In this document: positions 37,831-64,000 of the stretch, piece by piece
Position numbering within the stretch: the stretch's first letter is position 1
Layout: each line of letters begins with the position of its first letter
Assembly: GCA_964655065.1 (NCBI GenBank)
Contig: CAZZLC010000019.1
Location: forward strand, 1-64,000
DNA: 64,000 nucleotides
Direction: 5' to 3'
DNA from: an uncultured Enterobacteriaceae bacterium
GTDB taxonomy: Bacteria; Myxococcota_A; UBA796; GCA-2862545
Translations under genes and position numbers: made by a program
The notes under the pieces: model-generated
The model's database searches: none
What the model was told of the DNA's origin: nothing
The model's input: only the letters and a program-made list of their open reading frames with translations

Positions 37831-38412
37831 ATGACGGTGAGTGGCGTTCGAGCCAGGATTTTGGAGGAGGCCGTGCGGCTGTTCTCTCGCAACGGCTACG
37901 GCTCGACGTCGGTCCGCGAGGTCGCCGAGGCGGCCGGAATCACCAAGCCGACCCTCTATTATCACTTCGGCAGCAAAGAGGGCCTGTTCGAGGCGCTCAT
38001 CGACCACCACCTCACGGGCCTCGAAGCTCTCGTGGGCGAGGCGGTGACCTCGGCCGGGGGGGTGGTCGACCGCATCCGGACCTTCGCGAAGACCTACCTT
38101 CTCGGAGCCGCGGAGGAGGCCGATGCGCTGCGCTTCCTGCTCACCTGCAGCCTGCCGGACACCCGGGACAACGCAAACCCCCATTGTGGGGTGTTCGGGC
38201 GTGTCTTGCAAATCGTGACTCCGCTGCAGGACGTGATCCGCCAAGGAGTCACCAGCGGCGAGCTGCGGCGGGATCTCGATCCCGAAGTCGCGGTCTTCGC
38301 CCTCGTGGGTGCTCTCAACCTCCACCTCGCAGCGGCCCTCGAAGGTCGCGCGGTGCGAGGCGACACCGTCGATTCGATTCTCAACCTCTGGTTCCGTGGA
38401 GTGGCGGCATGA
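37831..38412 (+). CDS. TetR-family transcriptional regulator
   Basis: N-terminal HTH 'ILEEAVRLFSRNGYGSTSVREVAEAAGITKPTLYYHFGSKEGLF'. Stop overlaps the start of the membrane-fusion-protein gene (ATGA). Confidence 0.85.
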   Translation: MTVSGVRARILEEAVRLFSRNGYGSTSVREVAEAAGITKPTLYYHFGSKEGLFEALIDHHLTGLEALVGEAVTSAGGVVDRIRTFAKTYLLGAAEEADALRFLLTCSLPDTRDNANPHCGVFGRVLQIVTPLQDVIRQGVTSGELRRDLDPEVAVFALVGALNLHLAAALEGRAVRGDTVDSILNLWFRGVAA

Positions 38413-39491
38413 TCCCGCTCGTGCTTTCTTTTTTCGCAGGGTGTGCCGTCAATGCCGAGCAGGCATCGAACACGGTGACGCCGGGGAAGCTCGCTTCAGC
38501 GACCGCCGCCCGCGTCGAGGTCGTGGTCCTCGAGTCGGGTGAGGCCAAGCTGGAGCTCGACCTGCCCGGCGAGGTCGGAGGCGAGCGTGACGCGAACCTC
38601 GCCGCGGCCAACGGCGGCTACGTCGAGCAGGTGTTCGTGTCCGACGGCCAGGAAGTCACGGCTGGCCAGGTCCTCGCCTACATCGACGCCTCGCTCTACC
38701 GGGCCCAGCTCGACCAGGCCACCGCGCAGCTCGAGCAGGCGGAGGCCGAGCTCTCGCGAGTCGAGAAGCTCGGCGACCTCGCCAGTCAAGCCCAGATCGA
38801 CGGTGTCACGACCCAGGCCAAGGTCTCCCGCGCGTCGCTCCGGCAAGCCCAGACCCGGCTCGCCCGAGCCGTCATCCGCGCGCCGTTCAGCGGGGTGGTG
38901 GCCGATGTGGCCGTCGAGGCCGGCGAATCCGTGGGACCGGGCACGCCGGTGATTCGCGTGGTCCAGCTCGACCCCGCGGTGGTGAACCTCTCAGTCGCCG
39001 ACCGAGACGTCGTCTCGCTCGAGCGGGGCATGCCGGTCGAGGTCACCGCCGCGTCGCGGTCCGAGACGTTCGACGGCACCGTCTCCCGGGTCTCGCCCGT
39101 CGCCGACCTGCGCACCCGTTCGTTCCCCGTCGAGGTCGAGGTCCCGAACGAGCGACGGCTCCTGCTGCCGGGCATGATCGCCCGGGTGAAGGCCGAGCGC
39201 CCTCTGTTCGAGGACGCGATGGTCATCCCGCAGGACTGGATCGTGACCAAGCGGGACCGCCGCGGTGTCTTCGTGGTCGAGGAGAACACGGCGGTGTGGC
39301 GCGACGTGAAGCTCGGCGAGGTCCTGCACGATCGCGTGCTCGTCACCGACGGGCTGGCCGCCGGCGACCGGGTCGTGGTCACCGGTCACCGCGATCTGGT
39401 CGACGGCGACGCGCTCGTCGTCTCCCGCGAGGGCCGTTGCTGTAGCGACGGTCGCACCACCTTTGGCAACCAGGTCGAACGGGAGCCCTGA
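38409..39491 (+). CDS. efflux RND periplasmic adaptor (membrane fusion protein), lipoprotein
   Basis: ATG at 38409. Lipobox 'LSFFAGCAV', followed by a coiled-coil hairpin ('YRAQLDQATAQLEQAEAELSRVEKL'), a lipoyl/beta-barrel region and a C-terminal 'VVVTGHRDLVDGDALVV'. Confidence 0.85.
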   Translation: MIPLVLSFFAGCAVNAEQASNTVTPGKLASATAARVEVVVLESGEAKLELDLPGEVGGERDANLAAANGGYVEQVFVSDGQEVTAGQVLAYIDASLYRAQLDQATAQLEQAEAELSRVEKLGDLASQAQIDGVTTQAKVSRASLRQAQTRLARAVIRAPFSGVVADVAVEAGESVGPGTPVIRVVQLDPAVVNLSVADRDVVSLERGMPVEVTAASRSETFDGTVSRVSPVADLRTRSFPVEVEVPNERRLLLPGMIARVKAERPLFEDAMVIPQDWIVTKRDRRGVFVVEENTAVWRDVKLGEVLHDRVLVTDGLAAGDRVVVTGHRDLVDGDALVVSREGRCCSDGRTTFGNQVEREP

Positions 39492-42400
39492 TGCGTTCCG
39501 CCATCCACTGGCTCGTCACGCACCCCACCACGATCGCGATTGCAGCGATCTGCGTCTTCCTCTTCGGGCTCAACTCCTACGTGAGCCTGCCGCGGGAGTC
39601 GTCGCCCGACATCACGATCCCCGTCGTGATCGTCACGACGCCGTACGTGGGGGTTTCGCCCGAGGACATCGAGTCCCTCGTCACCGTTCCGATGGAGAAC
39701 GAGCTCGCCTCGCTCAAGAACACCAAGGAGATGAGGTCGACGTCGGCCGAGGGCATCTCGATCGTCGTCATCGAGTTCGAGCCCGACACCGTGGTCGAGG
39801 ACGCCCTGCAGCGCGTCCGTGACCGGGTGGGACGGGTGCGTCCGACCTTGCCGGCCGACGCCGAGGATCCCTCGGTGCGGGAGATCTCGTTCTCCGACGT
39901 TCCGGTCGTGCTCATCACGCTCGCAGGACCGGTCGGCGAGGCGAAGCTGAAGGAGCTGGCCGAAGACCTCCAGGACGACCTCACTCGGGTGCCCGGGGTG
40001 CTCGAGGTCGAGCTGACCGGCGGCACCGAGCGCCAGATCACGGTGGAGGTCCTGCCCGAGCGGCTCTCGTACTACGGGTTCTCGCTCGACGACGTCACGA
40101 GCGCGATCAAGAACGAGAACGTCAACATCCCCGGCGGCAACATCGAGACCGGTCGCGGGAACTTCCTCCTCCGCACGCCCGGGGAGTTCGACGAGGCCCG
40201 CGAGGTGGAGCGCGTCGCGGTGAAGCGGGTCGGTGACCGTCCGGTGTTCGTCCGTGACCTCGCCCGCGTGGTCGACGGGTACGAGCCTCGGGAGACCTAC
40301 TCTCGACTCCGCGGCGAGGCCTCGGTGTCGCTCGCCATCAAGAAGCGGGCGGGCGCCAACATCCTCGACGTGACCACCATGGCCAAGGAGCTCGCCGAGG
40401 AGCATGCCCAGCGCTGGCCCGAGACCGTGAGCTGGCGAGCGCTCGGCGACCAGTCGAAGGCCATCCGCGACATGGTCAGCGACCTGCAGAACAACATCAT
40501 CACCGCCTTGCTGCTCGTCGTCGGCGTGATCGTGATGTTCATGGGCTGGCGACCGAGCGTGTTCGTGGCGGTGTCCATCCCGCTGTCGATGCTCGGCAGC
40601 ATGCTGGTGCTCGAGGTGCTGGGCTTCACGCTCAACATGGTGGTGCTGTTCAGCCTGATCCTCGCGCTGGGGATGCTCGTCGACAACGCAATCGTCGTCG
40701 TCGAGAACGTCTACCGTCACAAGGAGATGGGCAAGGACAACATCCAAGCTGCGGTCGACGGCACCGAGGAGGTCGCGGTCGCCGTCGCGGCGAGCACGGC
40801 GACGACCGTGGCCGCCTTCCTCCCGCTCGTGTTCTGGACCGGCATCATGGGCGAGTTCATGGGGTTCCTGCCCAAGACGGTGATCATCGTGCTGATGATG
40901 TCGCTCGTGGTCGCCGTGGGTGTGCTTCCCGTGTTGATGGGCCGGCTTCTGCCGCAGCAGGTGGACGCGAAGGACCTGAAGGACGGCGAGCTCCGCAACG
41001 CCGAGCTCGACCCGATCATGGACCGCTACCGGACGTTCCTCCGGAGCTCGATCCGATGGCGCTACTCCACGTTTGCCATCGGGGCCTCGGCCTTCCTCGT
41101 CACCTTCGGGATCTACTGGTTCCTCAACCACGGCACCGAGTTCTTCCCCTCGACCGAGCCCGAGCGAGCCATCGTGGGGGTGCAGCTGCCGCAGGGCTCC
41201 GATGTCGACACCACCGACCAGGTGGTGCGCGCCGTCGAGCTCGTGCTGGCTTCGGAGGCCAACGTCGACACCTGGGCGGCCGACGTCGGCGTGAGCTCGG
41301 GCGGAAACCAGCTGCAGGGCTCGAGCGCGCGGCCAAACGAGGCGCGCGTCACCGTCGACTTCCTCCCCGACCGGAACACCGCCAAGCCCGGCGAGGCCCA
41401 GCGTATCGAACCCACGTCGCTCACCGTCGACCGACTCCGCGCGAAGCTGCAGGAGCTGCCCGGGGCCAAGATCACGGTCGAGCCACAGGTCATGGGGCCG
41501 CCCGTCGGCAAGGACATCAACATCGAGGTCTCGGGCGAGGACTACGACGAGATCGGGGAGATCGTGCTCAAGCTGCGCCGCGAGCTCGAGAACACCGTCG
41601 CCGGACTCGCCGACGTCGACGACAACTACGGGGTGGGCCGACCCGAGCTGCGGCTGCGCATCGACCGCGGAGCCGCCAAGCGAGTCGGGGTCAGCACGGC
41701 GTCCATCGGCAACGCGGTCCGCACCGCCATCGCGGGCGGGGTGGCCACCACCCTGCGCGAGGGTGAGGACGAGATCGACATCGTGGTGCAGCTCACCCCG
41801 GAGTACCGGGAGGATCTGCAGCGCGTCCTCGATCTCCGTCTGCCCGGCCGCGAGGACACCAGCCCCGACACCTTCCCCGTGCCCATCTCCGCCGTGGCGT
41901 CCTACGAGCTCGTCGGAGGGTCGTCGGGCATCAACCACATCGACCAGGACATGGTCGTGACCATCACGGGCGACGTCGCCGAGGGCTTCAACGCCAACGA
42001 GGTCCGGGGCGACGTCCAGGCGTTCCTCGACGGGTACGACTTCCCGAGCGGGGTGACCACCGCCCTCACCGGGGCCAACGAGGAGCAGGACGAGTCGCTG
42101 CAGTTCCTGGTTCGAGCCTTCTTCATCGCCGTCGCGTTGATCCTGCTCGTCCTGGTGACCCAGTTCGACAGCATCACCATGCCGGCGATCATCCTCGCCA
42201 CGGTGGTGCTGTCGCTCATCGGCGTGCTGTGGGGGCTGCTGGTCACCGGGACGCCCTTCGGCATCATGATGACGGGGATCGGCGTCATCTCGCTCGCCGG
42301 GGTCGTGGTCAACAACGCGATCGTGCTTCTCGACTACGTGCAGCAGCTCCAGGGCAGGGGGCTCTCCACGGAGGAGGCGCTGGTCGAGGCGGGGCTCACC

Positions 42401-44041
42401 CGCTTCCGCCCCGTCATGCTGACCGCGATCACCACCGCGCTCGGGCTGCTCCCGATGGCGCTCGGCGCCTCGTTCGACTTCTTCGAGCTCAAGCTGATCC
42501 TGGGCAGCAACTCGGCGGCGTTCTGGGGCCCCATGGCGATTGCCGTGATCTTCGGGTTGTCCTTCGCGACGGTGCTCACCCTGGTGATGGTGCCCGTTCT
42601 GTTCAGCATCAACGAGGACCTTCGCCACCGCTTGTTCCCGCGCCGCGCCGCCGCGACCGTCGCGGCCGCGATCCCGTTCGCCCTGCTCGTGCTCGTGCCG
42701 AGCGACGCGCGCGCGCTCACGCTGGACGAGGCCTGGCGCGCGGCGGAGCAGGAAGACCTCTCGCTCCTCATCGCCAAGGAGGACCTGGTCCAGACGAGCA
42801 CCCTCGTCGGCCAGGCCTGGGCGACCCTGTCGCCGACCCTGGCGACCAGCGCGACCTACGTGATCAACAACCAGGAGATCGTGCTCGACTTCGACGCGAG
42901 CGAGCAACAGCGGCAGCTCGGCGAGGCGCTGAACCCCATCCTCGAGTCGGTCGGCCAGCCTCCCGCGCTGCCCACCGAGAACTGCGGCCCCAACGAGACG
43001 CCGGACGGCGATTTCTGCCTCGAGCAGGGCGAACCCATCGTCGTGCAGGAGCAGTTCTTCTGGCAGGGCGACATCACGCTGCGGCAGACCCTGTTCAGCG
43101 GCGCGGCGTTCCCCGCCCTGCAGTCCGCCCAGCGTCTCACCGCCGCTGCGCGAGCCGACGTCCGCGATGCCACGCTGCGCTCCAAGGCCAACGTGGCCCG
43201 AGCCTACTACGGGCTGCTCGCTGCCCAGCAGGGGGTCCGGGTGTCCGAGAAGGCGCTCGACCTGGCGACCGCGCAGCTCGAGCTCGCCCAGCGTCGGCGG
43301 GACGCCGGGATCACCGACCGTCGCGCGCTCGTGTCCGCGCAGCTCGGGGTCAGCCAGGCGCAGCGCGATCTCGAGTCCGCACGCGAGGGCCTGGTCGACG
43401 CCGAGACCTCGTTCGAGCTCCTCACCGGGCTGCGCGACCAGTCCCTCGAGATGCCTCCGCCCTTCGTGGTCCCCGCCGAGCTCGACTCGGCGGTGTCCAC
43501 GGCGCTCGCCCAGCGCCCCGATCTGCAGGCGGCCGAGCTCCGGGTCCGCGCCCTCAGGGCCGAGAAGGTCGCCCAGAGCATGCGGTGGATGCCGCGAATC
43601 GACGGTATCGGCTCGATCGACTTCACCCAGAACGTCGGGTTCAACGACCGGAACACGACCTGGCGCATTGCGCTCACCGCGTCCTGGGACATCTGGGACG
43701 GCGGGTTTCGCATCGCCGACCGGCGCAACGCCGCGAGCCGCATGCGGGCGGCGCAGTATGCCCAGCAACTCCAGGAGCGGCAGGCCGAGCGCGAGGTGAA
43801 GGTCGCGTTCGAGTCCCACCGTCGCGCCCTCGCGGCCGTGGTGGCGGTCGAGGACGAGCAGTCGCTCGCCGACGAGAACCTCCTGCTCACCGAGCGGAGC
43901 TTCGAGGCAGGCAGCGCGACCTGGCTCGAGCTCGAGCAGGCTCGGCTCCAGGTGGAGGCCACGGCGCTGTCGCTGCTCCAGGAGCGCACCGCCCGCGACC
44001 TTGCCGCGATCGACCTGCTGGTCCGGACCGGCGCCCTCTGA
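39491..44041 (+). CDS. RND efflux transporter (AcrB-like, 12 TM) fused in-frame to a TolC-like outer membrane factor domain (1516 aa)
   Basis: Residues 1-~1045 are a typical HAE-type RND pump, with conserved 'LGMLVDNAIVVVENV' and 'GVVVNNAIVLLDYV' TM4/TM10 blocks. Residues ~1053-1516 are collinear with OMF/TolC repeats ('LTLDEAWRAAEQEDLSLLIAKEDL...', '...DLAAIDLLVRTGAL'). No stop codon separates them. The junction segment 'RRAAATVAAAIPFALLVLVPSDARA' resembles a signal peptide. Confidence 0.85.
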   Translation: MRSAIHWLVTHPTTIAIAAICVFLFGLNSYVSLPRESSPDITIPVVIVTTPYVGVSPEDIESLVTVPMENELASLKNTKEMRSTSAEGISIVVIEFEPDTVVEDALQRVRDRVGRVRPTLPADAEDPSVREISFSDVPVVLITLAGPVGEAKLKELAEDLQDDLTRVPGVLEVELTGGTERQITVEVLPERLSYYGFSLDDVTSAIKNENVNIPGGNIETGRGNFLLRTPGEFDEAREVERVAVKRVGDRPVFVRDLARVVDGYEPRETYSRLRGEASVSLAIKKRAGANILDVTTMAKELAEEHAQRWPETVSWRALGDQSKAIRDMVSDLQNNIITALLLVVGVIVMFMGWRPSVFVAVSIPLSMLGSMLVLEVLGFTLNMVVLFSLILALGMLVDNAIVVVENVYRHKEMGKDNIQAAVDGTEEVAVAVAASTATTVAAFLPLVFWTGIMGEFMGFLPKTVIIVLMMSLVVAVGVLPVLMGRLLPQQVDAKDLKDGELRNAELDPIMDRYRTFLRSSIRWRYSTFAIGASAFLVTFGIYWFLNHGTEFFPSTEPERAIVGVQLPQGSDVDTTDQVVRAVELVLASEANVDTWAADVGVSSGGNQLQGSSARPNEARVTVDFLPDRNTAKPGEAQRIEPTSLTVDRLRAKLQELPGAKITVEPQVMGPPVGKDINIEVSGEDYDEIGEIVLKLRRELENTVAGLADVDDNYGVGRPELRLRIDRGAAKRVGVSTASIGNAVRTAIAGGVATTLREGEDEIDIVVQLTPEYREDLQRVLDLRLPGREDTSPDTFPVPISAVASYELVGGSSGINHIDQDMVVTITGDVAEGFNANEVRGDVQAFLDGYDFPSGVTTALTGANEEQDESLQFLVRAFFIAVALILLVLVTQFDSITMPAIILATVVLSLIGVLWGLLVTGTPFGIMMTGIGVISLAGVVVNNAIVLLDYVQQLQGRGLSTEEALVEAGLTRFRPVMLTAITTALGLLPMALGASFDFFELKLILGSNSAAFWGPMAIAVIFGLSFATVLTLVMVPVLFSINEDLRHRLFPRRAAATVAAAIPFALLVLVPSDARALTLDEAWRAAEQEDLSLLIAKEDLVQTSTLVGQAWATLSPTLATSATYVINNQEIVLDFDASEQQRQLGEALNPILESVGQPPALPTENCGPNETPDGDFCLEQGEPIVVQEQFFWQGDITLRQTLFSGAAFPALQSAQRLTAAARADVRDATLRSKANVARAYYGLLAAQQGVRVSEKALDLATAQLELAQRRRDAGITDRRALVSAQLGVSQAQRDLESAREGLVDAETSFELLTGLRDQSLEMPPPFVVPAELDSAVSTALAQRPDLQAAELRVRALRAEKVAQSMRWMPRIDGIGSIDFTQNVGFNDRNTTWRIALTASWDIWDGGFRIADRRNAASRMRAAQYAQQLQERQAEREVKVAFESHRRALAAVVAVEDEQSLADENLLLTERSFEAGSATWLELEQARLQVEATALSLLQERTARDLAAIDLLVRTGAL

Positions 44042-53392: not shown

Positions 53393-54555
53393 AACCCTGG
53401 TTCTGGATGCTCTGGCTGCTCGCCGCAGTGGGCTGCGCGAAGTCGGGGCGGTCCGTGGCCGAGTACGACATCACGCGCGGCGCGCTCAGCGACGCGACCG
53501 GCTACGAGACGCTGCAGGCCGAGGCCGAGGCCGAGTATGCCCCTTCTCGGAAGGCGCGCGCCGGGCGCACCGCCGCCCCGCCTGCGCCTCCGCCCTCGAC
53601 CACGGTCTCACCGGTCGAACCGCCACGGCCTGACCGCATGGTCCACTACGACGGATTCGCGCGCATGCGGGCCACGCGGCCGAGCGAGACCGTCGATGCC
53701 GTCGCGAAGCTCGCCACCGACGTGGGAGGGCGGGTGGATCGCCTCACCGACACCCAGGCCACCGTGCGGGTGCCCGTGGCGTCGTTCGACGAGGTGTGGG
53801 CCGCGGTGCTCGACCTGGGGGACGTGCTCTCCAAGCAGGTGCGCGCCGACGACATCACCGACCAGTTTCGCGACATCGACCTCCGCGTGAAGACCCTCCG
53901 CACCATGCAGCAGCGCTTGATCCGGCTGCTGTCCCGGGCCCGCACCGAGGAGGAGAAGCTCGCCCTGCTCGAGCAGATCACCAGGGTCACCGAGGAGCTC
54001 GACCGCACGGAGTCGCAGCTCCGGGCGCTCCGCGATCTCGCCTCGATGTCGCGGATCAGCGTGGCGGTGGAACCCCGCGAGCTCGGCCGTCAGCAGGCCG
54101 AAGGGCTGGTCCTCTCCGGCTTCGAGTGGCTCCGCTCGCTGTCGCCGTTCAATCGGTCCGTGTGGGGCGACGACAAGCGCATCGAGCTGCCCACCCCCGA
54201 CGAGATGGTGTCGCTCACGAAGAACGGGCCCTGGATCGCCGAGAGCCCGGACCGGACCGTGATCTGGACCATGCGGGTGGAAAACGATCCCCGTGGCGAC
54301 GCGGACTTCTGGCGGAAGTCGCTCCACGAGGTGCTGGCGAGCGACTTCGAGAATGTGGCCACCCGTGACGTGGGCAACTGGGCGTGCTCGACGTTCGACG
54401 AGCCCGGCGCCGACGAGCCCTACCGCTGGCAGGTGTGCCTCACCGAGAGGGGCCGTCACGTCGAGGTGGTTCAGACCTACTTCCCCGGCCCGGCGCAGGT
54501 GGAACGCTTCGCCGAGCGCGTCGATGCCGCGCTCACGGGTGGAGGTGAGGCATGA
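53389..54555 (+). CDS. DUF4349-family lipoprotein
   Basis: ATG at 53389 with a GAGGAGGG RBS. Lipobox 'LAAVGCAKS', a Pro-rich linker, then a coiled-coil region ('DIDLRVKTLRTMQQRLIRLLSRARTEEEKLALLEQITRVTEELDRTESQLRALRD'). Confidence 0.7.
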   Translation: MKPWFWMLWLLAAVGCAKSGRSVAEYDITRGALSDATGYETLQAEAEAEYAPSRKARAGRTAAPPAPPPSTTVSPVEPPRPDRMVHYDGFARMRATRPSETVDAVAKLATDVGGRVDRLTDTQATVRVPVASFDEVWAAVLDLGDVLSKQVRADDITDQFRDIDLRVKTLRTMQQRLIRLLSRARTEEEKLALLEQITRVTEELDRTESQLRALRDLASMSRISVAVEPRELGRQQAEGLVLSGFEWLRSLSPFNRSVWGDDKRIELPTPDEMVSLTKNGPWIAESPDRTVIWTMRVENDPRGDADFWRKSLHEVLASDFENVATRDVGNWACSTFDEPGADEPYRWQVCLTERGRHVEVVQTYFPGPAQVERFAERVDAALTGGGEA

Positions 54556-55544
54556 TCGCGCTGATCGGACTCGTGTTCGGGGCGACCGCCGCCGAGCCCC
54601 AGCCGACGCGGGTCACCGCCGTCGTGACCGTCGCGGTCGCCCAGCGAGACGCGGCGGCCGACGCCCTCGTCGAGGGCGCCGAGGAGCTCGGCGGCTGGTT
54701 CCAGTCCCGCACCGACGACGGTGTGGAGCTGCGCGTTCCGACCGACAACGTGGATGCGATCCTCGACCGCGCAGCGGCGCAGGGCAAGGTTCTCGCCCGT
54801 TCGGTGGAGCGCAGCGACGTGGGGCAGGAGATCGCCGATCTTGCCGGCCGGCTCGAGGCCCGCAAGGAGGTCCTCGACGAGTACTTCCGTCTGCTCCGCT
54901 CGGCGGGCTCGAAGGCCATCGTGACCGTCGAGCGGCAGATCGTGAGGGCGATCGACGAGATCGAGCGCCTCGAGGGTCGGCTCAGGCTGCTCAACGACCA
55001 GGCGGCCTACGGCCGGGTCTCGGTCGACTTCCGCTTCCGGGATCGCGGCGCCCCCGCGAGGGACGGCGAGTCGTCGTGGGCGTGGATCAACACGCTCAAC
55101 GTCCAGGACGTCATCGCCGGACACCAGCTCGACCGGCCTGACTGGCGCTCGCGCGGCGCCTCGCTCGACGACCCGCCCGAGGGCTTCTCGGCCTGGAAGA
55201 AGGCGAGGCGATACCGGGCCGCCTCGCCCGACCGGGTGCTGTTCCGCGTGCGAACCGTGAAGCAGAAGCCCAAGGCTGAGCTCGACTTCTGGCGTGAGGC
55301 CGTCGCCAATCGCATGACCGATGCCGGGTACCGCGTCGTCGACCAGTCGTCGATCGAGGCCGGCGGGACCGAGGGGGCGATGCTCGAGCTCGCCGCCCCG
55401 CTCGGCAACCAGGACTGGAGCTACCTGCTCGCGATGTTCCCGCGCGGGCGCAAGATGGTGCTCGTCGAGGCCGCGGGAGAGGTCTCGGACTTCGCCGCAC
55501 GGCGCGAAGCCATCGTCGAGGCCATCGGTCGGGTCGAGCCCTGA
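54552..55544 (+). CDS. DUF4349-family protein, tandem paralog
   Basis: Overlaps the previous stop (ATGA). Same domain order as its neighbour, with 'RVTAVVTVAVAQRD...' and a coiled-coil 'EIADLAGRLEARKEVLDEYFRLLRSAGS...LEGRLRLLND'. Confidence 0.65.
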   Translation: MIALIGLVFGATAAEPQPTRVTAVVTVAVAQRDAAADALVEGAEELGGWFQSRTDDGVELRVPTDNVDAILDRAAAQGKVLARSVERSDVGQEIADLAGRLEARKEVLDEYFRLLRSAGSKAIVTVERQIVRAIDEIERLEGRLRLLNDQAAYGRVSVDFRFRDRGAPARDGESSWAWINTLNVQDVIAGHQLDRPDWRSRGASLDDPPEGFSAWKKARRYRAASPDRVLFRVRTVKQKPKAELDFWREAVANRMTDAGYRVVDQSSIEAGGTEGAMLELAAPLGNQDWSYLLAMFPRGRKMVLVEAAGEVSDFAARREAIVEAIGRVEP

Positions 55545-55561
55545 GCGCAGACGACCGACTC

Positions 55562-56413
55562 GTGGTCACCACCACGATCCGACACCTCGTGGGGTTCCTG
55601 CTCGGGTCGCTCGCGGTGGTGGGTCTGGTGTCGGTGGTCCTCGTGGGCGTCGTCGCGGTCCGGGTCCCCACGGGGAGTCCGGAGTTCGACCGGGCGATGG
55701 CCGCCGCGGTCGAGGATCCGACCTACGTCGGGCCCGTCAGTCTGCTCCAGGGATTCGGGCTGACCGCGCTCGCGCTCGGCCTCGGCTGGGCGCTCTCCCG
55801 TTCCGAGGGGGAGCGACTGGGCGACGTGCTCGGGCTCCGGGCGCCCTCGCCGGTGCTGTCGGTCACCGCCGCGGTGGGCGGGCTGCTCGTCTGGATCTGG
55901 CCCAGCTGGCTCGCGACGCAGCTCGTCGAGTGGTCGGGGGTCGAGTCCTCGGTCCAGTCGATCGGTGAGCTCCTCGTGGGCCCGTGGTCCGAGACCTGGG
56001 CGATGGTGCTCGCGGTGACGGTCGCGGCGCCGCTGTCCGAGGAGCTGCTGTTTCGCGGCTACCTCTGGCGGCTCGTGGAGAGAGCCTCCGGCTCGCGGGA
56101 GGCGGCCCTCGGGCTGTCCACCGTGCTCTTCGCGCTCTACCACGTCGACCCGGTGCACGTCGTCGCCCTGTTGCCCACCGCGGCGTTCCTCGGGTGGCTC
56201 CGTTACGCGTCGCGTTCCCTGTGGCCCGCGATCCTCGCCCACTTCGTGAACAACGCTGCCGCCGTGGTGGTGGTCCAGGTGCTGCCCGGCGACGTCGACG
56301 AACCCGGCCTCGCGCTTCTCGGAGGGGCAGCCTTCCTCGCGGTGGTGGGCGTCGGCGCGTGGCTTAGTCGCGAGCGATCTTCCGGAGGGCCCGCATCACC
56401 GACTCGTCGGTGA
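55562..56413 (+). CDS. CPBP-family (CAAX) intramembrane metalloprotease
   Basis: CPBP motifs 'EELLFRGYL', 'FALYH' and 'HFVNN'. A polytopic protein; GTG start at 55562. Confidence 0.8.
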   Translation: MVTTTIRHLVGFLLGSLAVVGLVSVVLVGVVAVRVPTGSPEFDRAMAAAVEDPTYVGPVSLLQGFGLTALALGLGWALSRSEGERLGDVLGLRAPSPVLSVTAAVGGLLVWIWPSWLATQLVEWSGVESSVQSIGELLVGPWSETWAMVLAVTVAAPLSEELLFRGYLWRLVERASGSREAALGLSTVLFALYHVDPVHVVALLPTAAFLGWLRYASRSLWPAILAHFVNNAAAVVVVQVLPGDVDEPGLALLGGAAFLAVVGVGAWLSRERSSGGPASPTRR

Positions 56414-56909
56414 TCGCCGGGTCGATCGTGGCCCACCGCACCCACCGGGCGGCCTTGGCGTCCGAGCCGGCACGGAGCGCTCGAGTCCCCGCCACGAACC
56501 GCAGGCGCAGATCGTAGTGGCGGTGCGGGGGCTGACCCTTCAGCGCAGGAATCTCGTGGACATCGACGTCGAAGAGTCCACTGCCCCACCGTCGCAGGTC
56601 GTGAAGCCCGGTCTCTTCGCCCACCTCGCGGCGCGCCGCCGCCTCGACCGAGACGTCGCCGGGCTCGAGGTGTCCGCCGGGCTGTAGCCAACGGTGGAGC
56701 TTGCCGTGCTCGATGAGCAGCACGTCATCACCATCCGGAGACAGCACGAACGCCGAGGCGGTGAAGTGCCCCGGCACGTAGTGCGCTCGTGAGGTGGGGT
56801 CGCTCGCGATGTCCGCGCGGGCGAGCGCCCGCATCTCTTCGACGAACCCGGCCTCCCGCTCGTCGGCCGGATCGTGCCGCGCGAGCAGGGCCCGGATGTC
56901 GTCGATCAC
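56364..56909 (-). CDS. NUDIX hydrolase
   Basis: GTG at 56909 overlaps the fadD-like stop (GTGA). Nudix box 'GGHLEPGDVSVEAAARREVGEETGL'. Confidence 0.75.
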   Translation of the reverse strand: MIDDIRALLARHDPADEREAGFVEEMRALARADIASDPTSRAHYVPGHFTASAFVLSPDGDDVLLIEHGKLHRWLQPGGHLEPGDVSVEAAARREVGEETGLHDLRRWGSGLFDVDVHEIPALKGQPPHRHYDLRLRFVAGTRALRAGSDAKAARWVRWATIDPAITDESVMRALRKIARD

Positions 56910-58750
56910 GCGGTCTTCTTCGCCGACGTGTACATGTCCTCGATGAGGTCCGCGAATCGGTCCTCGACGACCTTGCGCTTCACCTTGAGGCTCGCGGTGA
57001 GGATGCCGTTCTCGACGGTCATGGGCTCGGTGAGCAGGCGGAAGTACTTGATGCTCTCGAAGCTCGCGAGGCCATCGTTGACCTTGTCGACGTGTGCCTG
57101 GACGGCGGCCTTGACCTTGTCGTCCTGCGGCTGCGGGGTAGCGTCGTTCAGGGGGGCCCACACCTCGAGCTCCTCGGGGTCCAGGCTGATCAGCGCCACG
57201 CAGAAGTTCCGCCGGTCGCCGATGACCACGGCCTCCTGGACGATCTGGAAGTCCTTGAGGAGCCCCTCGATCTTTGCCGGCGCGACGTACTTGCCGCCGC
57301 TCGTCTTGATGAGCTCCTTCTTGCGACCGGTGATCTTGACGAAGCCCTCGGCATCCTTCGAGCCAAGGTCTCCGGTGTGGAACCAGCCCTCGTCGTCGAA
57401 GGCGTCCGACGTGGCCTCGGGCCGATTGAGGTAGCCCTGGGTGATGTTCGAGCCCTTGGCGAGGATCTCGCCGTCCTCGGCGATCACGATGTCGACACCG
57501 GGGAGCGCCTTGCCGACCGTGCCTAGCTTGAAGTCGTCGGGGCGGTTGACCGAGAGCGCGGGGCAGGTCTCGGTGAGCCCGTATCCCTCGATGAGATCGA
57601 GGTTCATGGCCAGGAAGAACTCGTGGACATCGGGGGAGAGCGGCGCCGAGCCCGACAGCAGGAGCTCGCAGTTGGTGAAGCCGAGGCGATCCCGAAGCCT
57701 CGACAGCACCAGCCGATCGGCGATGGCGAGCTGCAGGCCGGTGAAGAAGGGGATGGACTTGCCCTTGGCCCGGTAGGGAACCGTGGCCTTGCCCACGCCG
57801 ATCGCCCAGTCGAACAGACGCCGACGCAGCGGAGAGGCGCCGGCGACCGCGCCCTCGATGCGCGACTTCATCTTCTCGTAGACGCGGGGCGCGGAGGGGA
57901 AGAACCCGGGCTTCGAGGCCACGAGGTCGTCGACCAGGGTCGGCACCGAGGAGATGACGAGCGGGAACCCGAAGTACGGCCCGGCGGTCTCGATGAGTCG
58001 GCCGAAGCTGTGCGCGAGGGGGAGGAACAGGAACAACCCCGCGTCCTTCAGCGACTCGGGAAAGAGGTTGATCTCGTCCGTCTTCTCGAGGGTCGACAGC
58101 ATGTTGTCGTTGGTCTGGATCACCGCCTTCTGGGGCCCGGTGGTGCCCGACGTGTAGGTGTAGGTCGCCACGTCCTGGCGCGTCATGCCCGCGCGGCGCC
58201 GCTCGATCTCGGACTTCAGCGACGCGAGCTTCTCGCTGCCGCGCCGCTCGAGATCCTCGAGGCTCTCCCAGTCGCCGGCGGGGATCACGCCGGTGGGATC
58301 GATGACGACGATGTGCTTGACCTTGACGAGCTCGGGGCCGTACTGCTTGTCGAAGAACTCGAAGCCGTTCCGCATCTCGCGGACCTTCTCGAGCTGCTCC
58401 CCGTTCTCGGCAATGGCGATCACCGCCTTGGTGTCGGTGTGCATGTACCCGACCTCCTTGGGGAGGAGCGTCGCGTACACGGGCACGGTGCGAAGGCCGA
58501 CGGACAAGGCCGCGAAGTCGCACAGTACCCAGTCCATGCTGGTGTTGCCGATGATGGTGATGTGGGCATCGTCGGCCAAGGGTTCGTCCAGAGCGCTCAG
58601 CAGCCCGGCTGCGATGTTCTCGAGTCGGGGCGTGACGTCCTTCCAGGTGACCGAGCGGTAGCCCGAGGATTCCTTCACCTTGAAGGCAACGGCATCGGGG
58701 CTCTGCACCGTGCGATCGATCACCATTTGGCCGAGGGAGGTTGCCGCCAT
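56906..58750 (-). CDS. long-chain-fatty-acid--CoA ligase (FadD-like AMP-dependent synthetase)
   Basis: ATG at 58750 with a GGAGACG RBS. AMP-binding motifs 'YTSGTTGPQKAV', 'LIEGYGLTE', 'TGD' and 'SGGKYVAP'. The ORF as listed extends to 58864. Confidence 0.85.
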   Translation of the reverse strand: MAATSLGQMVIDRTVQSPDAVAFKVKESSGYRSVTWKDVTPRLENIAAGLLSALDEPLADDAHITIIGNTSMDWVLCDFAALSVGLRTVPVYATLLPKEVGYMHTDTKAVIAIAENGEQLEKVREMRNGFEFFDKQYGPELVKVKHIVVIDPTGVIPAGDWESLEDLERRGSEKLASLKSEIERRRAGMTRQDVATYTYTSGTTGPQKAVIQTNDNMLSTLEKTDEINLFPESLKDAGLFLFLPLAHSFGRLIETAGPYFGFPLVISSVPTLVDDLVASKPGFFPSAPRVYEKMKSRIEGAVAGASPLRRRLFDWAIGVGKATVPYRAKGKSIPFFTGLQLAIADRLVLSRLRDRLGFTNCELLLSGSAPLSPDVHEFFLAMNLDLIEGYGLTETCPALSVNRPDDFKLGTVGKALPGVDIVIAEDGEILAKGSNITQGYLNRPEATSDAFDDEGWFHTGDLGSKDAEGFVKITGRKKELIKTSGGKYVAPAKIEGLLKDFQIVQEAVVIGDRRNFCVALISLDPEELEVWAPLNDATPQPQDDKVKAAVQAHVDKVNDGLASFESIKYFRLLTEPMTVENGILTASLKVKRKVVEDRFADLIEDMYTSAKKTA

Positions 58751-58906
58751 CGTGTGTCGTCTCCGCTTCCACTGTGTGGTGGCGCCCCGTGACTGAACTG
58801 TCGGTCGGGTCGGTTTTTCGAGATACCACGCAACGCGCGTGTAATGCACACGGTGCGGCGTCAAAGCTAGGGCAAGATCTTCGAGACGGCGCGATCGAGC
58901 TTGACC

Positions 58907-59521
58907 CTAGGCCTGTCCAGCCGCCTGCAGAACCCCGCGCAAGTGTGGCGGACTCATGTCCATCGCGGCGCCGAGCTCGGTCAGGAACTGCTTCTCTTCG
59001 TCACTGAAGTATCCGTCCGCCGAAGCGACCGACAAAGCAGCGCGAATGACGATCTCCTTGCCGTAGTCGTTCAGTTGGCCCCGCACCTGCGCGACATAGT
59101 CGGTCAAGGGCTCGTCAGAGGCGGAGAGCTCCTCGGCCTCGGCGCGGATGCGCTCGGGATCCAGATTCCGGTCCGTGACCTGGCGGTAGAAGCGAGCGAC
59201 GGCCTCGATCTCCTGATCGTCGATCACCCCGTCGGCGATCATCATCTGGATCATGACGCGGCGCATCGCGACGTGGAACTCGGCCTCGATGGGCGCGGTG
59301 TCCGGCCCGGTCTCGGTGGCCCCGATGGGGAAGGTCCCTCGGCAGTGGCGACACTCGACGTACTCGCCGAGCAGGTCGAGCGGGAGCACAGGCACGCCGT
59401 AGAGGGTCACGAAGCGTCGGACGCGGCGATGCACGTAGGCGCGGTCGGCCCGGCAGGTGGGGCAGAAGAACCGGCCCTTGCCGTGGCGAAGGGGAATGCC
59501 GCGCGTCTCCACCCTGCTCAT
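58907..59521 (-). CDS. zinc-ribbon plus TerB-like domain protein
   Basis: ATG at 59521. N-terminal CxxC..CxxC ('CPTCRADRAY...CRHCRG') followed by a TerB-like helical domain ('MIADGVIDDQEIEAV', 'ADGYFSDEEKQFL'). Confidence 0.65.
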   Translation of the reverse strand: MSRVETRGIPLRHGKGRFFCPTCRADRAYVHRRVRRFVTLYGVPVLPLDLLGEYVECRHCRGTFPIGATETGPDTAPIEAEFHVAMRRVMIQMMIADGVIDDQEIEAVARFYRQVTDRNLDPERIRAEAEELSASDEPLTDYVAQVRGQLNDYGKEIVIRAALSVASADGYFSDEEKQFLTELGAAMDMSPPHLRGVLQAAGQA

Positions 59522-59609
59522 GGGCGACTCCGGGGAAGGGGGCCCCAGCTGGCGTCTCGGCGCCTTCGCGACGAGTTTCACGGTGACGTAACAGCGGGGT
59601 GACCCCCGC

Positions 59610-62600
59610 TCACGGAACGGCGATCGGCGCCCCCGTCGCGTGCTGAAGCGCGAGCCAGCTCCGCACCACCTCGTGCCGGGCTCGAGCCTCCTCCGCCTGC
59701 CGACGACTCGCGGCGGCCTGAAGCTGCAGCACGTCGATGATCGTGGATCGGCCCACTGCGTACTGGGCCTCCACGAGCCGCAGCGCCTCGCTGGCCTGGG
59801 CAAGCGCCGCCTCCCGCACGGGAACCGCCTCGCGGGCGACGCGGTAGCGCGCCTCGGCGTCGACCCACGCGAGCCCGATTTGGCGATCGAGCTCCTCCCG
59901 ATCCGCGCGCAGAGCGGCGAGCTGCCTGGTCAGCGAGCGATCCTGCGCCTGACGTGCGCCTCTCGCCACCGGGGTCCACGAGGCCACCACGGCGCCCTGG
60001 ATCCAGGTGTTGGGGTCCAGGACCTCGTTGTTCGTCCCGCTGAAGCGTCCCTCGAGGGTCACGCTGGGGAGGGCGTCTCCCCGCAGGGCGGTCCGTTGGC
60101 GTCGCACGGCCCGTAGTCCTGCGTCGAGGGCCTGCTGCTCGGGTCGGGTGGCCCTGTCGGAGAGGGCCTCCGGGAGGACGAAGGCCTCTTTCGTGCAGCT
60201 CACCGCTTCGTCCGCTCCGATCGCCGCGGCGAGGGCCACCTCGGCGACCCCACGCTGTTCGTCGAGAGCGAAGCGCTGCTGCACTGCGTCGAGCCGGGCC
60301 ACCTCGACCTGGAGCGCGTCCGCGCGGAGCACCCGGCCCTCGGCGAGCAGAGCCTCCACGCGGGCCGCCTGTCGCGCCAGTGACGCGATCTGGTCGTCGA
60401 GGGCGACGAGCCCTGCTGCGAGATCCCACTGATCGAGGCAGGCCCGGGCCGCGGCGAGCCGGGCGTCGCGCTCGGCAGCCAGGTACCGAGCGGCCTGCTG
60501 GTCGCTCGAGGCTCTGGCCGCCTGCCAGCGGGCCCAGTCCCCCGGAACGAGGACCGGCACCTGGAGGATGGCCGCCCCCTCGATGGTGTCCTGGGGCGTC
60601 TGGAGGATGTCGATGGGGATGTCCGGAGGGGCCAGTACCAGGTCCGTCTCGCGGCGGGTCGCGGTCACCTGACCGCTCACCGCGGGCAAGAACGCCTGCC
60701 CGAAGGCGGCCTGGGTCTCGGCCCGGGCGGCCGCCGCCCGGCGCTCGGCCGCGGCGACCGAGGGACGGGCCGACGCGGCGCGGTCCATCGCGGTGGCGAG
60801 GTCCACGTCGACGGCGCCTGCCGGACTCGGGAGCAGCAACTGCGCGATCCCCGCCGCGAGGGCCGGGCGGACACCCGGAGACAACCTGGGCCCCGCGCCC
60901 GACTCTCGGCGGAAGACGAGCACGTACAGAGCCGGCACCACGAGGAGGGTGAGCCCCGTGGAGGCCACCAGACCGCTGATCAGCGCGCTCGCGAGCGGCG
61001 GCCACAGCGTGCTCGACGAGAACAGGAGCGGCAGCATGCCCACGATGGTCGTCAGGGTGGTGAGCAGGATCGGCCGGGTGCGCTTGGTGACGGCATCGGA
61101 GACGGCCTCGACCAGCGGCGCGCCCTCGCGACGTCGCTGATCGATCCAGTCCACCAAGATGATCGCGTTGTTCACCACGATGCCGATCAGCGCGAACACG
61201 CCGAGGAGCGACGTGAACCCGAAGGGCTGTCCGGTGAGCACCAGCCCCGGGATCACGCCCGTGGCGGCGAGCGGCACGGTGGTGAGCACGATGGTGACTC
61301 GGCGGAACGAGCCGAACTGGGCGAGCAGGAACAGGAGCAACAGGAGCCCTCCCATCGGAGCCGCGACCAGGATCGCCGTGTTCGCGGTCTCGGAGCCTTC
61401 TGCCTCTCCGCCGATCTCGAGCCCGAGCCCGGCGCGCTCCACGATGGCCTCGATTTCGGGCCGGACCTCGGCGGCGACCTGGTTGAACGCGAAGCCGGGT
61501 CGCAGCTGTGCGGCCACGGTGGCGATGCGCCGTCGGTCGCGACGGTGCAGCACGGTGGGACGGAACTCGACGGAGGCTCGGGCGTAGTTCGCGAGGGGGG
61601 CGGGGCCGCGAGGGGACCACACGTCGATGGTGGGCAGGTCCGTGAGCGGGAACCGCTCGCCCGCCTCGGAGCGGACCACGATCGGGGTGGGCTCCTCGTC
61701 TGACCACAGCGAGCCGGCTCTCAACCCCCGCGTCTGGGCGAGGACCGCCTGTGCGACGGTGGCGGGGGCGATGCCCGCGAGCGCGGTGGTCTCGTCGACC
61801 ACCGTCATGGCGAGGGTCGGCGTTCCAGGTCCGAGATCGTGCCGGACGTCGGTCGTCGCCGGGTGGCTCCGCAGCACCTGGTGAATCGCGTTGGCGGCAT
61901 TCCACAGCTCGGAGACGTCGTCGCCGACGAGGCGGTAGGCGAGGGGCGCGACGAGCGGGGGCCCTTGCTCGAGCTTGCGGGCCACGAAGGCGGTGCCCGG
62001 GAGGTGCTCGCGCGCCTCCGCGCGGGCCCAGGCGATCAGGGGCTCGACGTCGCCCGTCGAGCGAGTGGTCACCAGCAGCTGGGCGATGTGGGGGGCCTGG
62101 GGTCGCCGACCGAGGTTGTAGTAGAAGGGCGGCGTGCTCCGGCCGACGAAGCTCGCCACCTGGGTGACCTCCGGGCGGGTGAGCAGGGCCCGCTCGAGCA
62201 CGGCCGCGGCCTCGCTCGTCGTCTCGAGGTGAGCACCTTCGGCGAGCTCCAGGGTGAACACCGCCTGATTGCGATCCCCGGCGGGAAAGAACTGCTGTCG
62301 CACGAGCGGCAGGAGCAGCAGGACTCCGAGCACCAGCAGCGAAGCAGCACCGACGGTGCTCCAGGGGTTCTCGGTGGGGAAGCGGGCCATCGTCTTCAGC
62401 CACACCCGGTCGGCGAGCGATCCCCGAGGGCTCGGTCGGAAGGCGAGCGCGGCGAGCGAGGGGGTCACCGTGATCGCGAAGACGAAACTCACGACCAGGG
62501 TGAGCATCACGAGCTGCGGGATCGCACGGGTGAAGTCTCCCGAGGGTCCCTCGGACAGCAGCAGGGGCACGAAGCTCGCGAGCGTCGTGCCCGTCGCGGT

Positions 62601-63896
62601 GAACAGCGGCCAGGCGAGCTCGCTGATGGTGCCGGTCGCTGCGTCCTCTCCGGAGTCCCCCTCGTCGATTCTGGCCTGAACGCGCTCCGCGACCACGATC
62701 GCGTTGTCGACGAGCAGGCCGAGCGACAGCACCAGGGCGGCGATCGAAATCTGCTGCAGCACTCCGCCGGACAGCGCGTAGATCCCGACCGAGGCCAGGG
62801 TCACCAGCGGTACGACGCTCGCGACGACCCCCCCGAGTCGCAGCCCCATGGTCACGATCAGCACCAGGCCGACGATGAACGCACCCTGAAGCAGGGAGCC
62901 ACCCAGATCGGCGAGGCGTCGGTCGACCCGCGCCGGCTGGTTGGTGACGATGGACAGCTCGAGCGGGGCGAGCTCCGTGGTGAGCGGCTCGAGCGCCGCC
63001 TGCACGGCGTCTCCGTACGCGACGACGTCGATCCCGGATCGCGGATTCACGCCCACGGCGAGTGCGGTGCGTCCGTCGAGCCTCATCAGCGCCTGGGTCG
63101 GCTGCTCGGGGTCGCGCCGAATCCGTGCGATCTGCGACAGCGGCACCGACGAGCCCGAGCCGATCGCGATCGGCATGTCCGCGAGCGCCTCCTGGTCGAC
63201 GAAGTCGCTTCGTGGGTCGACCACGACCGAGCGACCGCCGTCAGCGACGCGTCCTCCAGGCACGATCGAGGTGCGGAGCTCGATCTGCCGGGCGAGCGTC
63301 TGCTGGGACAGGCCGAAGCGGCGGACCGCTGCGTCGTCCACGCGAACCGTGATCTGCTCTCCGGGATCGGGGGTGATCGTCACCTCCCGGGTGTCGGGGA
63401 TGGCGCGGAGGGCGTCCTCGACGCGCTCGGCCGCCTTCAGCAGCTCCAGGCGATCGTCGCTGCCGGTGAGCGCGACGATCACGGCTTGCAGGCGGGTGAG
63501 CTCGATGTCGATGGTGATGGGAAGAGCGGCCGCAGGGAGCTCGGCCTGGACCTCGGCGAGCTCCTCCTTGACGTCGTCCCAGTAGGGATCGGGCTCGGCG
63601 ATGGTCTCGCGCAGGCGGACGGTGAGGATCGCGACCCCCGAGCGGGCGGTCGCGTCGAGGTGCTCGATGCCTTCGACATCGGCGAGTGCGTCTTCGATCG
63701 GTTCGACCACCAGGCGCTCCACCCGTTCGGCGTCCGCGCCGGGCAGCGGCGCGATCACCAGGGCGTTGCGGTTCGGGAACGTGGGGTCCTCCTGGCGGGG
63801 CATCACGAACCAGGCCACGAGGCCCGCGAGCGCGAGCGCTCCGGCGAGGAGGTAGATCAGGCGACGCTGGTCGAGGAGGAGTCGCGCGAGGTTCAC
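59610..63896 (-). CDS. RND efflux transporter fused in-frame to a TolC-like outer membrane factor domain (1428 aa), second copy
   Basis: GTG at 63896 overlaps the stop of an upstream membrane-fusion-protein gene (GTGA). Residues 1-~995 are an RND pump ('LGLLVDNAIVVAERV', 'GIVVNNAIILVDWI'). Residues ~1000-1428 are OMF-like ('...STIIDVLQLQAAASRRQAEEARARHEVVRSWLALQHATG'). The junction 'RRESGAGPRLSPGVRPALAAGIAQLLLPSPAGA' again has a hydrophobic stretch with an AxA site. Confidence 0.85.
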   Translation of the reverse strand: MNLARLLLDQRRLIYLLAGALALAGLVAWFVMPRQEDPTFPNRNALVIAPLPGADAERVERLVVEPIEDALADVEGIEHLDATARSGVAILTVRLRETIAEPDPYWDDVKEELAEVQAELPAAALPITIDIELTRLQAVIVALTGSDDRLELLKAAERVEDALRAIPDTREVTITPDPGEQITVRVDDAAVRRFGLSQQTLARQIELRTSIVPGGRVADGGRSVVVDPRSDFVDQEALADMPIAIGSGSSVPLSQIARIRRDPEQPTQALMRLDGRTALAVGVNPRSGIDVVAYGDAVQAALEPLTTELAPLELSIVTNQPARVDRRLADLGGSLLQGAFIVGLVLIVTMGLRLGGVVASVVPLVTLASVGIYALSGGVLQQISIAALVLSLGLLVDNAIVVAERVQARIDEGDSGEDAATGTISELAWPLFTATGTTLASFVPLLLSEGPSGDFTRAIPQLVMLTLVVSFVFAITVTPSLAALAFRPSPRGSLADRVWLKTMARFPTENPWSTVGAASLLVLGVLLLLPLVRQQFFPAGDRNQAVFTLELAEGAHLETTSEAAAVLERALLTRPEVTQVASFVGRSTPPFYYNLGRRPQAPHIAQLLVTTRSTGDVEPLIAWARAEAREHLPGTAFVARKLEQGPPLVAPLAYRLVGDDVSELWNAANAIHQVLRSHPATTDVRHDLGPGTPTLAMTVVDETTALAGIAPATVAQAVLAQTRGLRAGSLWSDEEPTPIVVRSEAGERFPLTDLPTIDVWSPRGPAPLANYARASVEFRPTVLHRRDRRRIATVAAQLRPGFAFNQVAAEVRPEIEAIVERAGLGLEIGGEAEGSETANTAILVAAPMGGLLLLLFLLAQFGSFRRVTIVLTTVPLAATGVIPGLVLTGQPFGFTSLLGVFALIGIVVNNAIILVDWIDQRRREGAPLVEAVSDAVTKRTRPILLTTLTTIVGMLPLLFSSSTLWPPLASALISGLVASTGLTLLVVPALYVLVFRRESGAGPRLSPGVRPALAAGIAQLLLPSPAGAVDVDLATAMDRAASARPSVAAAERRAAAARAETQAAFGQAFLPAVSGQVTATRRETDLVLAPPDIPIDILQTPQDTIEGAAILQVPVLVPGDWARWQAARASSDQQAARYLAAERDARLAAARACLDQWDLAAGLVALDDQIASLARQAARVEALLAEGRVLRADALQVEVARLDAVQQRFALDEQRGVAEVALAAAIGADEAVSCTKEAFVLPEALSDRATRPEQQALDAGLRAVRRQRTALRGDALPSVTLEGRFSGTNNEVLDPNTWIQGAVVASWTPVARGARQAQDRSLTRQLAALRADREELDRQIGLAWVDAEARYRVAREAVPVREAALAQASEALRLVEAQYAVGRSTIIDVLQLQAAASRRQAEEARARHEVVRSWLALQHATGAPIAVP

Positions 63897-64000
63897 GGCC
63901 GCACCTCCACCGGTTCGCCGACGACGAGGCCGATGTGGCCAGCCACGATGACGCGGTCACCGGGCGCGAGGTCCCCCTCGACCGCCACGGCGGAGCCCCG
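63894..64000 (-). CDS. efflux RND periplasmic adaptor (MFP), C-terminal fragment; gene continues beyond the window
   Basis: The minus-strand frame ending at the TGA at 63894-63896 reads '...GSAVAVEGDLAPGDRVIVAGHIGLVVGEPVEVRP*', a typical MFP C-terminus. It is not in the ORF track because its start lies outside the window. Confidence 0.6.

Follow-up and report, generated by a model that had tools for sequence, protein, structure and literature searches.

We analysed a stretch of 64,000 nucleotides (the window; positions 1 to 64,000 of contig CAZZLC010000019.1, GenBank assembly GCA_964655065.1) and identified near its end a gene, here called F2 (59610..63896, minus strand), in which a resistance-nodulation-division (RND) efflux permease and a TolC-type outer membrane factor (OMF) are encoded in one reading frame. 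A second gene with this architecture, F1 (39491..44041, plus strand), lies in the same window. We think it quite likely that F2 is part of a tripartite RND efflux operon in which pump and channel are translated as one precursor, a polyprotein that would be cut by signal peptidase I (SPase I). As for RND-OMF fusions generally, it is on balance probable that they are obligate polyproteins with an SPase I-cut internal signal placed after a pump of 12 transmembrane segments (TMs), that one gene thereby supplies two membranes, and that the arrangement evolved at least twice and is spread over several phyla.

F2 is a single uninterrupted open reading frame (ORF) of 1428 amino acids with a GTG start and a TGA stop, and its translation has no internal stop. 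Pfam profiles place ACR_tran at residues 5-994 (E 7.5e-132), followed by two OEP stretches (E 4.1e-28). The G+C content at third codon positions (GC3) is 0.83-0.97 in all 60-codon blocks, including those that cross the junction between the two parts (codons 961-1080). Thus, one frame is coding from end to end. A protein identical to F2 (P0001) is present in the NCBI-derived collection, on a contig of 115,841 bp. With two Pfam domains in one frame and an architecture kept in more than 230 independent database clusters, the fusion is beyond chance. The original prediction had described a genuine in-frame RND-OMF fusion, and this is borne out by the ORF without a stop, by the ACR_tran and double OEP matches, and by the TolC fold of the modelled C-terminal part (below).

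The RND permease part (60912..63896, minus strand; residues 1-995) covers positions 3-1020 of the 1021 in the ACR_tran profile and scores 441 bits (cutoff 28), as found for members of the RND superfamily. Hydrophobic segments are grouped at about residues 13-31, 340-532 and 841-994, with TM12 at the end of the part (...VVPALYVLVF). The best NCBIfam match is RND_permease_2 (337.7 bits, cutoff 1250); TIGR00914 (HME) gives 228.7 bits (cutoff 701) and TIGR00915 (HAE1) 212.4 bits (cutoff 940). None of the curated NCBIfam cutoffs for the named RND subfamilies (HAE1, HME, RND_permease_1/2) is reached by this part of F2, and it therefore has no assignable subfamily or substrate class. The TetR-regulated context suggests organic or toxic compounds as the substrate. 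At the relay-residue positions, D396-N397 (LVDNAIV, TM4) and N908-N909 (VVNNAI, TM10) are invariant in 36 fused homologues. The equivalent residues of AcrB are D407/D408 in TM4 and K940 in TM10. The proton-relay chemistry of the fused families may be different from that of textbook HAE1 pumps. Both motifs are common to the families of F2 (residues 395-399 and 906-911) and F1 (about residues 396-402 and 939-944; alignment A1).

F2 follows directly on the end of a gene for a membrane fusion protein (MFP, the adaptor of such pumps), of which the C-terminal 35 codons and the stop are in the window (63893..64000, minus strand) and the remainder is past its edge. This tail ends ...VIVAGHIGLVVGEPVEVRP*, and its TGA overlaps the GTG start of F2 by 4 nt (GTGA; CCGTGAACC). 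Pfam gave no match to the 35 residues, which are too short for one. They match the C-terminus of the MFP that precedes a 77%-identical fusion in L001 (...VIVAGHIGLVVGERVE...), in agreement with the earlier proposal that F2 has its own upstream MFP coupled through GTGA. Complete MFP genes are found upstream of the fusion in L001, L002, L086 and L087, and the F2 locus likewise has an adjacent adaptor. Operons of both families have the order TetR-MFP-fusion, with overlaps of 1-4 nt and no separate OMF gene. In its full form, the F2 operon is predicted to consist of tetR, the MFP gene and the RND-OMF gene, with tetR and most of the MFP gene past the window edge.

The OMF part of F2 (59613..60812, minus strand; residues 1029-1428) contains two tandem OEP repeats, which together score 98.9 bits against a cutoff of 22. 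The TolC family profile TIGR01844 matches residues 1032-1422 (2e-13), under its cutoff (50 vs 225 bits). We modelled residues 940-1428 as a monomer with AlphaFold2, from an alignment of 67 sequences. The model (mean pLDDT 93.6) shows, in order, TM11, TM12, a lower-confidence linker, a short lower-confidence helix (1009-1021) and a protomer of the TolC type, which contributes four long strands to the barrel and has short strands in the equatorial domain as well as long helical hairpins. The OMF fold of the model begins at V1029, directly after the residues AGA. A Foldseek search of the Protein Data Bank (PDB) matched VceC, OprJ, CusC, TolC, SilC, CmeC, OprM, OprN and MtrE. The 38 best matches have E values of about 5e-16 to 4e-13 over ~410 aligned columns, with top target-normalised TM-scores of about 0.70-0.78; for 1yc9 (VceC), 3pik (CusC), 5azs (OprJ) and 1ek9 (TolC), E values are 5e-16 to 9e-16 and target TM-scores 0.73-0.78. 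By this model, the C-terminal part of F2 is predicted to be a complete TolC fold.

A phmmer search of PDB sequences with the F2 OMF part gave no match, and the same search with the F1 OMF part found OprJ-like proteins, CusC and OprM. Given the empty sequence search and the profile and fold matches, the likeness of the F2 OMF to known channels is at the level of profile and fold. The original prediction had expected its C-terminus to align with the OMF region of F1 or with TolC-family profiles. The first did not happen, as BLASTP gave no alignment between the two OMF parts; the TolC-family profile match was obtained, and the fold match agrees with it. A library-wide phmmer search with the F2 OMF alone gave 718 matches. 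Among the best 150 of these (cluster representatives) are ~30 full-length fusions and ~12 apparent truncated fusions, and the rest are stand-alone OMFs of 410-460 amino acids.

AcrB-type RND permeases have 12 TMs and both of their ends are cytoplasmic. Consequently, anything fused to the C-terminus of such a protein needs a route across the inner membrane. In F2, the candidate for this route is the junction of 33 amino acids (60813..60911, minus strand; residues 996-1028), a would-be TM13 that resembles an internal signal peptide of the Sec type in its sequence, its pattern within the family and its equivalence to the leaders of other OMFs. It reads RRESGAGPRLSPGVRPALAAGIAQLLLPSPAGA|VDVDL, exactly the string that had been quoted in advance as a basic, then hydrophobic, then AxA segment. 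We identified a basic n-region (RRESGAGPRLSPGVR, net +3), an uncharged h-region (PALAAGIAQLLLP) and a c-region (SPAGA), after which the chain continues VDVDLATAMD.... The pattern is that of Sec/SPase I substrates (basic n-region, h-region of 7-15 residues, small residues at -3/-1, here AGA|V), and the SPase I site is predicted at A1028|V1029. The location is not that of an ordinary signal peptide, which is N-terminal; residues 996-1028 lie after TM12. Because the RND C-terminus is cytoplasmic, the internal junction has the same N-in/C-out orientation. In stand-alone relatives of the OMF, the N-terminal leader ends exactly at the equivalent of A1028|V1029 (e.g., MNRLLPLLLTLFAVPAHA|LTLQEAM and MKRMLVMLLALCSLPTTAHA|QEAISF...).

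The junctions of the F2 family keep the n/h/c pattern, and the residues themselves are not conserved. Signal peptides typically keep pattern rather than residues. In a set of 111 sequences, the stretch from TM12 to the hydrophobic core carries a median net charge of +4, and 99 of them reach +2 or more. Downstream of the core, 68 of the 111 have an A.A motif; random windows of the same proteins gave 34 on average and 47 at most. For the F1 family, we anchored the junctions on the conserved mature start LTL(D/E)EAW; the junction of F1 itself (42608-42715, plus strand) reads …RHRLFPRRAAATVAAAIPFALLVLVPSDARA|LTLDEAW. Ala is present at -3 in 82% of this family and at -1 in 64%; at -6, no residue is more frequent than Pro (about 40%). 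Leu is abundant from -8 to -15, Ala from -16 to -25 and Arg from -26 to -30. Members with Pro at -1 read AxA|AP. The median spacer from the core to the first conserved OMF residue is 12 residues long for the F2 family (interquartile range 8-19) and 8 for the F1 family (maximum 22). On these features, which are conserved in both families, the junction is predicted to be a retained Sec signal peptide.

We also considered a lipoprotein junction, processed by signal peptidase II as in channels of the NodT/OprM type. There is no Cys at the F2 junction, and Cys occurs near the site in only 2 of 114 F2-family sequences and 4 of 137 in a second set (mostly F1-family). This candidate was rejected, as the lipobox Cys is essentially absent near the site.

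The following pathway is consistent with these features. After TM12 has been made, the 33-residue junction would enter SecYEG co-translationally in the N-in/C-out orientation of an N-terminal signal peptide, and the TolC-like part would be threaded into the periplasm. SPase I would then cut after AGA (A1028|V1029). The OMF of roughly 400 residues would be released, fold, trimerise and insert in the outer membrane, and the RND protein would keep the leader as a 13th transmembrane helix. RND, OMF and MFP would assemble as an ordinary 3:6:3 pump. The likely benefit would be the obligatory 1:1 co-production of a cognate pump and channel at the same site. The Sec translocation, the cleavage and the selective benefit are the inferred elements of this model.

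If no cleavage occurred, the junction would be a permanent 13th TM anchor and the OMF would remain linked to the pump by a covalent tether. In most members, the junction has the hydrophobicity needed for a membrane-spanning segment, RND and OMF are both trimers (so that a 1:1 covalent link is stoichiometrically possible), and a few members have spacers of 30-60 residues. However, the usual tether of 8-12 residues extends to about 40 Å at most, and the OMF fold of the model starts right after AGA. In TolC and AcrAB-TolC structures, the OMF N-terminus belongs to the equatorial domain, halfway up a helical barrel of 100 Å. This places it above the roughly 70-Å RND headpiece and >100 Å from the inner membrane, as in any canonical pump. 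A spacer of about a dozen residues does not bridge the periplasm, and cleavage is therefore favoured over a lasting tether. Cleavage is also favoured because the small residues at -3/-1 and the frequent Pro at -6 are conserved and would be needless for a mere anchor. In addition, insertion in the outer membrane demands release from the inner membrane. We consider a lasting tether unlikely.

Several points weigh against the proposed model. The case for cleavage is wholly computational. A few family members have a longer spacer, up to 60 residues. F2 itself has a short core (LAAGIAQLL) of no more than moderate hydrophobicity (Kyte-Doolittle 2.09). The proteins are Ala-rich and a chance A.A is fairly common (about 31% of control windows vs 61% observed). 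Finally, the tree behind the proposal of at least two origins (below) is an unbootstrapped neighbour-joining tree.

The OMF could also come mainly from internal initiation, with the full-length product minor or non-functional. In F2, a GTG (V1009) lies just before the hydrophobic core; starting there would give a textbook leader (MRPALAAGIAQLLLPSPAGA|VD...), and this codon may be the ancestral OMF start. However, Val or Met at this position is not conserved in the family alignment. As there is no stop codon, every ribosome that translates the RND part continues into the OMF, and the full-length chain is made regardless. The junction in that chain is under constraint like that of a signal peptide, including the basic residues of the RND tail upstream. 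Internal initiation as the main source of the channel thus seems to us very improbable, and processing of the full-length chain by SPase I is the reading that we retain.

F1 encodes 1516 amino acids, with ACR_tran at residues 8-1040 followed by two OEP stretches. Its OMF part (42716-44038, plus strand) is C-terminal to the junction, and an MFP gene lies directly before it (38409..39491, plus strand; HlyD_D23 and HlyD_3; NCBIfam RND_mfp 230 bits, above the cutoff of 94.9). The operon begins with a gene for a TetR-family regulator (37831..38412, plus strand; 193 amino acids), whose typical TetR N-terminal helix-turn-helix was judged by eye with no profile scan. The probable MFP start is the ATG at 38409, which overlaps the tetR stop (ATGA, 38409-38412), and the F1 start overlaps the MFP stop (TGATG, 39489-39493). 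The F1 operon is thus complete in the window and coupled throughout. The MFP has a lipobox-like N-terminus (MIPLVLSFFAGC); by this feature, the adaptor is probably a lipoprotein, and the OMF probably is not. Compared with the profile, the first OEP repeat of F1 has ~50 extra residues, and it contains a Cys pair (…ENCGPNETPDGDFCLEQGEP…; about residues 1130-1200) that is not present in F2. It is possibly a disulfide-bonded OMF insertion. Divergent from the operon is a gene of the sodium:dicarboxylate symporter family (36016-37755, minus strand; SDF, E 3e-119), listed as an ORF of 579 amino acids that probably starts ~140 codons too early.

The fused architecture is widespread. We searched a collection of 5.8 billion proteins with the whole F2 protein, and examined the 120 best matches. 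The great majority (116) are 1400-1684 amino acids long; about 113 are listed with both PF00873 and PF02321, and three with PF00873 only. Among the best 120 matches to F1, 119 are fused, with identity down to 51%. Each family comprises more than 110 clusters with the fused architecture, F2-type proteins having about 1440 amino acids. The matches are drawn from NCBI, JGI, ENA and Logan assemblies, and several are on contigs of 5.0, 5.2 and 9.4 Mb. The uninterrupted ORF is kept in homologues from independent assemblies that are 77%, 65% and roughly 40-48% identical. The closest homologues are from Myxococcota, and the window itself probably derives from a metagenome-assembled genome (MAG) of that phylum. 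Source labels of the fused genes include Myxococcota, Acidobacteriota, Thermoanaerobaculia, Holophagae, Desulfobacterales, Alphaproteobacteria and Rhodobacterales. The architecture was initially described as lineage-specific; this is wrong, as the labels cover several phyla and unfused relatives are nested among the fused ones.

That the long ORF is an artefact or a pseudogene, in which two overlapping genes were joined by an indel from assembly or sequencing or by a recent mutation and the cell makes, or once made, two proteins, is scarcely credible: unfused relatives overlap RND and OMF by 1-4 nt, where a single indel error would give such an ORF, and the window is apparently metagenome-assembled, with its identical proteins on one NCBI contig (115,841 bp) and closest homologues named as Myxococcota MAGs, but the same fusion recurs across the four sequence sources and on the megabase-scale metagenome contigs, the junctions keep their length and pattern, GC3 does not drop where the two parts meet, and a second, unrelated fusion is present in the same window, in line with the original judgement that a sequencing artefact was unlikely.

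The proposal that F2 is an independent second fusion is strengthened by comparison with F1. By BLASTP, identity between the two RND parts is 27%, and the OMF parts are not alignable. F1 and F2 represent two separate fused families and not a recent duplication. In a neighbour-joining tree of 133 RND domains (no bootstrap, indicative only), F1-type fusions form one clade and F2-type fusions another, with many unfused clades between. The F2-type clade is sister to unfused gammaproteobacterial pumps, and a few unfused members are nested inside it. Given the 27% identity of the RND parts and the distance between the families in the tree, the fusion probably arose at least twice; most likely, it was also lost or re-split.

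A scan of GTDB with conserved peptide patterns returned mostly unfused RND genes, since the patterns are located in the RND part; the only fusions were L006, L009 and L027, plus the truncated L004 and L005. The closest unfused RND relatives (45-50% identity) are in the Nannocystales MAGs L007 and L022. In both, an OMF gene with its own leader is directly downstream and the RND stop overlaps the OMF start (ATGA and TGATG). The first pair reads ...CAATGATCGCC followed by the OMF start MIAALLALVLVAPPSPSQA|RP..., and the second ...GTCTGATGACG followed by MTSMLLFVALAGAAPP.... In the P0112 operon, TetR, MFP, RND and OMF are separate genes, with a gap of 105 nt between RND and OMF, and one further unfused relative has no OMF gene in the operon. 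We regard the coupled Nannocystales pairs as a putative evolutionary intermediate. The fusions probably originated from translationally coupled RND and OMF genes of this sort, with overlapping stop and start, through a single frame-restoring indel that joined them. The basic RND tail would then have supplied the n-region of the junction.

Some stand-alone OMF relatives (L007 9020-9090, L022 5840-5900; P0242, P0247, P0250 and P0270) start with 'MI...' and have a very short leader without a basic residue, such as MIAALLALVLVAPPSPSQA. Such leaders fit ATGA-overlapped starts behind an RND gene. Some short-leader stand-alone OMFs may be true fusions that were split by gene callers. P0249 (467 amino acids) clearly has its start within TM12 of a fusion.

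F2 is followed on its own strand (56364-59803, minus strand) by two ORFs, one with a TerB domain and one with a NUDIX domain at its C-terminal end. The TerB match covers residues 179-285 of an ORF of 298 amino acids, whose true start is probably internal since the listed ORF overlaps the F2 3' end. The NUDIX match covers residues 689-802 of an ORF of 821 amino acids, the start of which is uncertain. Two adjacent ORFs of 536 and 330 amino acids (52945-55544, plus strand) overlap by 4 nt and each contain DUF4349 (E 2e-29 and 5e-26), and thus are a tandem pair. Scans of the 64-kb window for tRNAs and with Rfam gave nothing above threshold. The G+C content of the window is 67-73% throughout, with no obvious compositional island near F1 or F2.

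The F2 locus resembles the canonical AcrAB-TolC, MexAB-OprM and CusCBA systems in its MFP, 12-TM RND protein, TolC-fold OMF and TetR-regulated operon. Unlike these, RND and OMF of the F2 type are one ORF, joined via the internal signal peptide, with no further gene for an OMF in the operon; moreover, the RND part has D-N and N-N motifs and falls under all NCBIfam subfamily cutoffs. Compared with the Nannocystales loci (L007 and L022) and P0112, the gene order TetR-MFP-RND-OMF is the same and the OMF leader is placed where the F2 junction is, but there the RND gene has a stop codon, and the OMF leader, which begins with Met, is short of a basic n-region or has none.

The nearest architectural parallel known to us is the cytochrome b-c1 polyprotein FbcH of Bradyrhizobium japonicum, in which an internal signal sequence is reportedly cleaved after translocation. 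A polytopic inner-membrane protein precedes a periplasm-facing protein there too, and one gene gives two subunits of one complex. However, the proteins are unrelated to those of F2, the FbcH product stays on the inner membrane whereas the OMF of F2 would have to reach the outer membrane, and cleavage is reportedly demonstrated for FbcH and only predicted for F2.

Fusions on record for efflux and secretion systems include fused dimeric adaptors such as DSY0927, Thermus SecDF, and engineered AcrA-AcrZ or AcrA-AcrA (PMC4446572, PMC8277102). Unlike F2, the parts of these fusions share one compartment and stay joined, with no inner-/outer-membrane pairing and no internal signal peptide. The reviews of tripartite pumps that were consulted describe fusions of these kinds and none between RND and OMF in nature. 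A description of a natural RND-OMF fusion was not found in the open-access literature searched, where absence is no proof of novelty. The sequences are already public; the architecture and the processing it implies appear to be undescribed in that literature. In databases, the fused genes are named 'efflux RND transporter permease subunit' or 'TolC family protein', and in the output of some gene callers they are cut in two. JGI labels some of the proteins 'multidrug efflux pump subunit AcrB/outer membrane protein TolC'.

Tripartite pumps are central to drug and metal resistance of Gram-negative bacteria, and the matching of channel to pump is still debated. RND and OMF barely touch in current AcrAB-TolC structures, and a natural fusion of the two is therefore unlikely to concern docking. 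Rather, it suggests that selection acted on joint expression, on a fixed 1:1 stoichiometry and on biogenesis of the two proteins in one place. Functionally, the F2 locus is predicted from its gene content to be an ordinary tripartite RND pump, and the fusion is a variation on pump biogenesis that can be tested, not a system of a new kind. If the processing proposed here is true, the fusions would be a rare case of a bacterial SPase-processed polyprotein with products in different membranes. They would also provide RND-OMF-MFP triplets by the hundreds, certain to be cognate, in which co-evolution could be analysed, as well as a rule for annotating fused genes and a natural system for studying the assembly of tripartite pumps and the pairing of cognate pump and channel.

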